Shown here in pieces: positions 415 to 756 of a stretch of DNA of 2,555 bases. Under the pieces are notes generated by a model. The model worked only from the letters and a program-made list of their open reading frames with translations. It searched no databases and had not been told where the DNA came from. The position numbers were made by a program, and so were the translations under genes. This DNA comes from a virus (Duplodnaviria > Heunggongvirae > Uroviricota > Caudoviricetes), in IMG/VR virus record IMGVR_UViG_2623620506_000010. One strand, given 5' to 3'. Each line of letters opens with the position of its first letter. Within the stretch, counting starts at the first letter, position 1.

Positions 415-756
415 TTATAAATCAGTCTGTTTAATAAAACTTTGTCCGCGAATCAGACGATCAACCGTGCGTAGTGCTTCGTATAATGTGAAATCCTGCC
501 CGAACTGATTGTCGCCGCTGCTTAGTGCAAAAATGCGATTTCCGGTAAACGGATTGCGTGGGCATTTATGGACCACGATTCCAGCTTTCTCAATCAGCCA
601 GGCATGCTCGCCGATTTGTTTTACTGGGTGGCCATCCGGCGTTGCGTGTGTATCACTCAGGCTGTAGCGGATGTTGTTGCGTGATGCACTGGTAGCGAAA
701 CGGTTAGCGTGGCGTTCAGCACCATTACGAAAGCGTGAATTACGTTGCTGTTTCAT
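415..756 (-). CDS. Hypothetical small basic protein (113 aa), second gene of the cox early operon
   Basis: ORF from the six-frame track. ATG at complement 754-756 is preceded by GGAG (complement 764-767) with a 7-nt spacer. It starts 18 nt after the cox-like stop. Arg-rich N-terminus (MKQQRNSRFRNGAERHANRF...). I recognise no family. Confidence 0.6.
   Translation of the reverse strand: MKQQRNSRFRNGAERHANRFATSASRNNIRYSLSDTHATPDGHPVKQIGEHAWLIEKAGIVVHKCPRNPFTGNRIFALSSGDNQFGQDFTLYEALRTVDRLIRGQSFIKQTDL

Follow-up and report, generated by a model that had tools for sequence, protein, structure and literature searches.

Among described P2-like phages, the closest counterpart of the gene examined here is gp04 of P88 (YP_009113047.1), whose product is 90.5% identical to our protein and is likewise encoded directly after cox. 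More distant counterparts are gp38 of the Salmonella phage SEN5 and gp05 of the Klebsiella phage ST16-OXA48phi5.4, which have early-operon position and basic charge in common with it and share the same five-stranded, one-helix (beta5-alpha1) core, at 35–42% identity over residues 47–108. Two further systems invite comparison through the position of their genes: phage 186, in which cII lies on the lytic transcript, after apl and directly before fil, and P2, where cox is followed directly by Orf78, a small basic ORF whose function is unknown. The P2-type switch has been described as having no CII equivalent (PMC3448106, PMC7708051).

The window (the whole stretch of DNA that was analysed, 2,555 bp) represents the lysogeny/early-control part of a P2-like prophage, with the following features:

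1–105, − strand: N-terminal 35 codons of a DUF4754 gene, truncated by the window edge (PF15946, E 3.5e-20)
117–404, − strand: 95-aa ORF of the same operon (phrog_3800, E 1.1e-60; no Pfam match)
415–756, − strand: DUF4761 coding sequence, 113 aa, with an ATG start and its stop codon at 415–417 (ORF list, Pfam, PHROG)
445–627, − strand: DUF4761 core, codons 44–104 (AlphaFold2, block pLDDT 82–90)
628–756, − strand: Arg-rich N-terminal extension, codons 1–43, missing from short forms of the family (alignments A2 and A3)
764–768, − strand: Shine-Dalgarno motif GGGAG, 7 nt before the ATG (754–756), read from the sequence
775–1101, − strand: cox-like gene (108 aa) that opens the early operon (Phage_Cox, PHROG, BLASTP)
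1197–1499, + strand: P2 C-type helix-turn-helix (HTH) repressor, 52% identity to P2 C
up to 2555, + strand: tyrosine integrase, 54% identity to P2 Int

The leftward genes follow in the order cox-like, DUF4761, 95-aa ORF and start of DUF4754, and the short gaps between them (18 nt from the end of the cox-like coding sequence to the DUF4761 ATG, and 10 nt from the DUF4761 stop to the next coding sequence) lead us to treat the four as one tight operon. The arrangement places the DUF4761 gene in a P88-like (Xuanwuvirus-type) prophage and, judging from gene order, in its early lytic operon (Pe-type), where it would be co-transcribed with cox. The 95-aa ORF is 80% identical to P88 gp05, and the intact DUF4754 gene (80 aa) can be seen in E. 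coli and in P88. We note in passing that GenBank record KP063541 probably over-annotates the 80-aa DUF4754 protein of P88, which it names a 'DNA modification methyltransferase'.

As a whole, the window is 98% identical to E. coli chromosomes and is present at full length in 124 complete E. coli genomes; the matching prophage adjoins pheL/pheA, and its gene boundaries are annotated identically. Among sequenced phages the closest are P88-like (Xuanwuvirus, Peduoviridae), and these match positions 1–766 only. All matches in the phage collection are in fact restricted to 1–766 (or 1–735), and none of 50,697 phage records matches the int-C-cox module (767–2555). The joint at which immunity and early modules have recombined is thus at 735–766, that is, at the 5′ end of the DUF4761 gene, and the int-C-cox immunity module of the window is a different cassette from that of the P88-like phages. 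P88 gp04 accordingly stands behind another immunity module than the window protein, from which it also differs in that the window copy has a tail shorter by three residues.

The gene directly upstream stands where cox would be expected, facing a P2 C-type repressor gene, and by the measures available its product is a divergent type of Cox: it scores 25.3 bits against the Pfam Phage_Cox profile, under the cut-off of 27.5, and its BLASTP match to P2 Cox has 28% identity (E 2.9e-7). Its best PHROG is the unannotated phrog_11919 (E 5.7e-70), with a weak further match to phrog_272, 'Cox-like excisionase and repressor' (E 2e-4). RefSeq calls the product a 'hypothetical protein' and starts it at 1101 (108 aa), versus 1170 (131 aa) in the ORF list. 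The intergenic region between the cox-like and C repressor genes contains an inverted repeat (1117–1126 and 1139–1148, TTTGGGGTAT / ATGCCCCAAA) that could be an operator for the Pe/Pc switch; a consensus scan found no sigma-70 promoter between these two genes.

The original prediction had described the ORF at 415–756 as encoding a basic protein of 113 aa directly after cox, and that description is borne out by the ORF list, by a pI of 10.3 and by the 18-nt gap. Near-identical E. coli prophages carry the gene annotated at identical coordinates. To gauge selection on the coding sequence, we compared six homologues of the 113-aa protein (those of the window, an E. coli prophage, P88, Salmonella, E. 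albertii and a third enterobacterial copy). Pairwise dN/dS values ranged from 0.05 to 0.17 and were low alike in the first 40 alignment columns (0.05–0.14) and in the remainder, and variable sites fell at codon positions 1/2/3 in the numbers 19/15/64. As estimated from these substitution patterns, purifying selection on the gene is strong. An ORF that had arisen by chance, or a gene in decay that is neither expressed nor functional, would have to be reconciled not only with these ratios and the preponderance of third-position substitutions, but also with a good ribosome-binding site, 30–45% identity across genera and a confident predicted fold in both forms of the protein; the comparative data effectively refute it. 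That the ORF is translated, as opposed to open by chance, is the reading that dN/dS, the ribosome-binding site and the family match all favor, and we hold it practically certain that 415–756 is a real gene and a member of DUF4761.

Synonymous divergence is high at the start of the gene: dS in its 5′ part is 0.3–1.2, with the exception of one pair involving the near-identical E. coli copy, and thus gives no sign of an embedded conserved DNA element of the cII/pE kind. Near the cox/DUF4761 junction (approximately 650–850), a consensus scan revealed no promoter-like site on the + strand, and Rfam gave no match to the window at E values up to 1. The cox-like gene has, inside its 3′ end, an inverted repeat with perfect 11-nt arms (788–798 and 826–836, TTAAGAAAGCC / GGCTTTCTTAA). 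After it, on the − strand, come AUUUUG and a hairpin of 6 bp, CUGCAU-GAG-AUGCAG (769–783), that abuts the GGGAG of DUF4761. The repeat and the hairpin could form a weak attenuator, a translational element or a protein-binding site; hairpins at the junction are no more stable than those of shuffled sequence (z −0.12).

It had been said of the protein that it could not be placed in any family by eye, a point that needs correcting: it matches Pfam DUF4761 (PF15958) over essentially the full profile (residues 9–113 against positions 1–105 of 105; 228.5 bits, E 1e-68, for a gathering threshold of 27 bits), as do 16 of 16 members of alignment A2, and it matches phrog_2492 (E 2.4e-44) from residue 28 to 110, covering positions 2–83 of 83. 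The protein nonetheless deserves the description 'uncharacterised', since DUF4761 and phrog_2492 are both catalogued as being of unknown function. RefSeq labels near-identical E. coli proteins 'DUF4761 family protein', and homologues in a collection of 5.8 billion proteins are named solely 'DUF4761 family protein', 'hypothetical' or 'uncharacterised'. A literature search returned no mention of DUF4761 or PF15958, and papers naming Xuanwuvirus, P88 or P2-like phages yielded no functional information. The entity is thus already known, its near-identical relatives being catalogued, and it ranks as an ordinary 'conserved hypothetical' in a phage group that is well known.

The distribution of the family is narrow. 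When 1.84 billion cluster representatives were searched exhaustively with an HMMER profile, only 24 clusters were recovered, among them several fragments and one false positive that owes its score to composition. All DUF4761 copies that could be placed lie within P2-like prophages, and their hosts are nearly all Enterobacterales (Escherichia, Salmonella, Citrobacter, Klebsiella, Enterobacter and Serratia, with Hafnia, Erwinia, Pantoea, Edwardsiella and others as further genera), across which the family is conserved at 30–45% identity. Within E. coli, the ORF is matched in 1362 of 5426 complete genomes, O157:H7 and UPEC strains included, with copies that are nearly all chromosomal; for comparison, any part of the window is matched in 1383 genomes. 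The nearness of these two counts indicates high retention, unlike that of a fast-swapping hotspot gene.

Several outlying records were considered individually. A match in a contig labelled 'Microbacteriaceae' (L033), drawn in by the low-complexity N-tail of the profile, covers just 10% of its own ORF and was set aside as spurious. The 5161-aa S/Y-rich repeat protein P0133, with 11 'stretches', is a compositional false match to the low-complexity N-tail of the profile, and P0129 (222 aa), in which the N-half of DUF4761 is fused to an unrelated C-terminal sequence, was treated as an artefact and not as a member. A contig labelled 'Vagococcus' (L009) bears a genuine long-form copy in an enterobacterial-type prophage context, and we suspect that this record is mislabelled or contaminated.

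Two forms of the protein can be told apart. Short forms of 63–88 aa, such as SEN5 gp38, Klebsiella ST16-OXA48phi5.4 gp05 and those of many other prophages, consist solely of the region that aligns to window residues 44–108. Long forms of 102–120 aa, found in P88-like prophages of E. coli, Salmonella, Citrobacter and Cronobacter, have in addition an Arg/Ser/Asn-rich N-terminal extension, approximately 43 aa long in the window protein. In the AlphaFold2 model of the latter, pLDDT is below 50 over residues 1–28 and secondary structure starts only at residue 46, with strands at 46–49, 52–55, 60–64, 76–80 and 83–89 followed by a helix at 91–102; the predicted core is therefore made up of five beta strands against which a single C-terminal helix packs. 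A 68-aa short form, modelled independently, has the same beta5-alpha1 topology at a mean pLDDT of 85, which argues that DUF4761 is an autonomous domain of approximately 60 residues. Residues D88, F89, L91, E93 and A94 are invariant in both forms, and H51, G61, T71, G86, T97 and D99 nearly so. The conserved residues map to strand beta5, the beginning of the helix and the 'PRNPxT' loop between beta3 and beta4; the sole cysteine, C66, is not conserved, and no signature of a catalytic type was found in the protein.

All family members are basic (pI 7.8–10.8, with medians of 9.9 for short and 10.4 for long forms), and the median net charge is +3.5 for the short-form core, as against +2 for the long-form core plus +5 for its tail. 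Charge thus shifts between core and tail, so that positive charge, rather than the sequence of the tail, looks to be what is conserved. The tail is predicted to be disordered yet is under purifying selection, and its description in the original prediction as Arg-rich is correct (8 K/R and a pI of 11.9 over residues 1–36). What had been drawn from it, namely that the Arg-rich N-terminus suggests nucleic-acid binding, fared less evenly: constraint on the tail and the basic character of the family keep the idea plausible, but the tail is a lineage-specific addition that short forms do without, and for this reason it cannot define the function of the core.

To place the gene in its wider setting, we surveyed its context in P88, SEN5, Klebsiella phi5.4 and 26 genomic loci, which span several genera of Peduoviridae. 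Wherever flanking sequence is present, DUF4761 is in the early operon of a P2-like prophage, and in almost all of the 26 loci it stands zero or one small gene after a cox- or apl-type gene, almost always at a distance of 0–25 nt. One extra small gene intervenes in the SEN5 group and in L014; at L008, approximately 1.3 kb, including a 202-aa ORF, separates the cox-like gene from DUF4761; and at L024 and L025, transposase-like ORFs resembling an IS element lie in between. By eye, these last are IS21-type istA/istB-like ORFs (L024, Enterobacter hormaechei, 3043–4844; L025, Mixta mediterraneensis, 2999–4812). The two prophages are probably defective, since their early genes would be cut off from the promoter. 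A further observation from the survey concerns the prophage of E. coli FHI_NMBU_10 (L002, 523–2474). Between its replication endonuclease gene and ogr/portal, at the location of tin/old in P2, it encodes three proteins: a ParM-like segregation protein, one for partitioning/stability and a regulator of the Rrf2 family; a plasmid-like partition module of this sort is unusual cargo for an integrated P2-like prophage.

The immunity modules upstream of DUF4761 fall into three or more unrelated types: P2 C together with P2 Cox; C together with the cox type of the window; and an HTH repressor of 127–149 aa accompanied by two ORFs, one ribbon-helix-helix-like and one Apl-like (67 aa). This third module lies upstream of short-form DUF4761 in L014, L015, L018–L020, L022, L026 and L027 (at about 3400–4980). 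In it the repressor is followed by a 205–232-aa protein with a C-terminal hydrophobic segment, and this pair is divergent from the ribbon-helix-helix-like ORF (63–70 aa) and the 67-aa Apl-like ORF. The variety of immunity modules suggests that DUF4761 travels with the downstream early/replication module and not with immunity specificity.

The gene order of short-form phages is cox-(x)-DUF4761-Fil-like-Dhr-like, with DUF4761 often overlapping the Fil-like gene directly downstream. Long-form loci differ in that DUF4761 is followed by the 95-aa ORF and DUF4754; in the window no Fil-like gene stands behind it. The short-form order parallels apl-cII-fil-dhr of 186, so that DUF4761 fills the cII slot. 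The proteins themselves are dissimilar: 186 CII, the activator by which lysogeny is established, has 169 aa and carries, by annotation, a putative helix-turn-helix motif, whereas DUF4761 has no HTH, is predicted to be beta-rich and gives no BLASTP match to CII at E <0.05. Nor is an element evident at the DUF4761 locus that resembles pE, the leftward establishment promoter that 186 CII activates at the cox/cII junction, and the high 5′ dS, together with the missing junction promoter, argues against a literal cII/pE arrangement. The most ambitious reading would make DUF4761 a new beta-sheet nucleic-acid-binding fold and a second early regulator in the C/Cox-type P2-like phages, functionally analogous to 186 CII and providing delayed feedback from the lytic transcript onto the lysis–lysogeny switch; we regard it as a long shot. 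The comparison with P2 is similar in kind. The original prediction had located the gene where P2 has its small ORFs, and Orf78 is indeed found there, but this ORF has 56 aa, and no homology to it could be detected (hhalign with A2: probability 0.3%, P 0.2).

Searches for relatives of known function were negative throughout. BLASTP revealed no similarity to P2 Orf78, 186 CII, Fil, Dhr or P2 B, and hhalign gave no homology with the Fil-like (P 0.3) or Dhr-like (P 0.13) alignments; among P2 and 186 early proteins of defined function, the original prediction's proviso, no homologue was therefore found by either method. Searches of Pfam with 16 members at E values up to 10 returned nothing besides DUF4761 (no HTH and no AP2), and the PDB, searched by single sequence and by profile, and NCBIfam returned nothing. 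Foldseek on the predicted structure, a check proposed at the outset, produced no match at E ≤ 1e-3 in either the PDB or BFVD. Two folds were considered in particular. For a UBC/RWD/UEV-like fold there was no significant structural match, and C66 is not conserved, as the catalytic Cys of an E2 enzyme would be. By eye, the last three strands and helix ('YRGFTI...Y.I...G.YFGRDFALAEA..T.D') recall, in topology, the DNA-binding fold (three-stranded sheet plus helix) of AP2/ERF and integrase arm-binding domains, with a motif likeness of the form G-x-(D)F-x-L/T-x-E-A-x-x-x-x-D. In hhalign, five PDB-verified AP2 domains and 24 P2-type Int N-termini gave P values of 0.22–0.39, which do not improve on those of the unrelated controls Cox, C, Fil and Dhr; profile comparison thus lends the idea no support, and it stands as a lead only.

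As our main reading, held at a probability of roughly 0.3, we propose that DUF4761 is a non-enzymatic nucleic-acid-binding protein with an accessory or regulatory part in early development. It would be a small binding protein produced as lytic development starts, contacting DNA or RNA through a basic, aromatic face of its beta sheet, with the basic tail of the long form reinforcing the contact; an accessory or regulatory role is what the operon slot shared with 186 cII and P2 Orf78 would suggest. We favor nucleic-acid binding on account of the conserved charge with its compensation between core and tail, the constraint on the Arg-rich tail and the fixed position next to cox. Counting against it, searches of Pfam, NCBIfam and PDB sequences recovered no DNA- or RNA-binding family or fold, the invariant or nearly invariant acidic residues D88, E93 and D99 are atypical of a DNA-contacting surface, and 186 Fil, which acts on cell division, is basic too. 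Also unfavourable are the outcome of the AP2/integrase-arm comparison, the fact that P2 and 186 do without the gene, and the high 5′ dS with its lack of any sign of a cII/pE-like element.

An early inhibitor of a host division, replication or transcription protein, in the manner of 186 Fil and Dhr, is about as likely as nucleic-acid binding, which makes it an equally tentative proposal. DUF4761 is small, early-expressed and devoid of a recognisable enzymatic or DNA-binding motif, its short-form gene is directly upstream of a Fil-like and then a Dhr-like gene, and the exposed conserved residues D88, E93, T97 and D99 on beta5-alpha1 would suit a protein–protein interface. The weak structural neighbours, moreover, are mostly protein-interaction folds (UBC/RWD/UEV, SH2 and PsiB).

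Small proteins of early operons are often involved in anti-defence or exclusion, and both P2 and 186 do without DUF4761, which makes it dispensable for the P2-like life cycle as such and an accessory gene at the scale of the family. An anti-defence or superinfection-exclusion protein, among the roles raised in the original prediction, would fit such an accessory gene, and there are weak, non-significant structural matches to AcrIF24 and AcrIIA11. Set against this are the fixed position of the gene and its near-universal retention within carrier lineages, across immunity modules and host genera, which is unlike the behavior of the rapidly swapped P2-like hotspot genes; in addition, PADLOC defence profiles yielded no family at E values up to 1. 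A 2026 survey reported recognisable anti-defence genes in just 28 P2-like prophages, although a new type would be beyond its detection (PMC13586616). We consider this function unlikely, and think that DUF4761 is not strain-specific defence or anti-defence cargo.

Equally doubtful is a role as an accessory in phage DNA transactions, working with the A-type replication endonuclease or in Cox/Int excision, for example as a replacement for P2 B. The gene does adjoin cox, upstream of the replication genes, its product is basic, and the 26 loci contain neither a 186 cII homologue nor a convincing P2 B homologue (there is one weak partial match, in L016, E 6e-5). DUF4761 itself, however, has no similarity to P2 B, and 186 likewise manages without a P2 B homologue; 186 reportedly depends on host DnaC, as Hooper and Egan are said to have found in 1981. 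The linkage of DUF4761 to unrelated Cox types also argues against a specific partnership with Cox.

Returning to the family as a whole, the ORF is no orphan, and the result is mainly one of clean-up: the gene's location within a model genetic switch is of interest, and none of the findings is surprising. DUF4761 is narrow in distribution yet abundant, with copies in one complete E. coli genome out of four, and, whatever the immunity type, it comes second in the early operon, after cox, in a fixed position. It is an early gene, conserved and under selection, for which neither the PDB nor BFVD offered a detectable fold relative. It belongs to one of the best-studied groups of temperate phages and is a reasonable target for a simple study by deletion and expression. 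The CII-analogue reading, if true, would matter because C/Cox-type phages are held to lack a CII equivalent (PMC3448106, PMC7708051). Were DUF4761 to modulate the switch or early transcription, this would revise the view of the C/Cox-type P2-like phages as systems without a third switch component.
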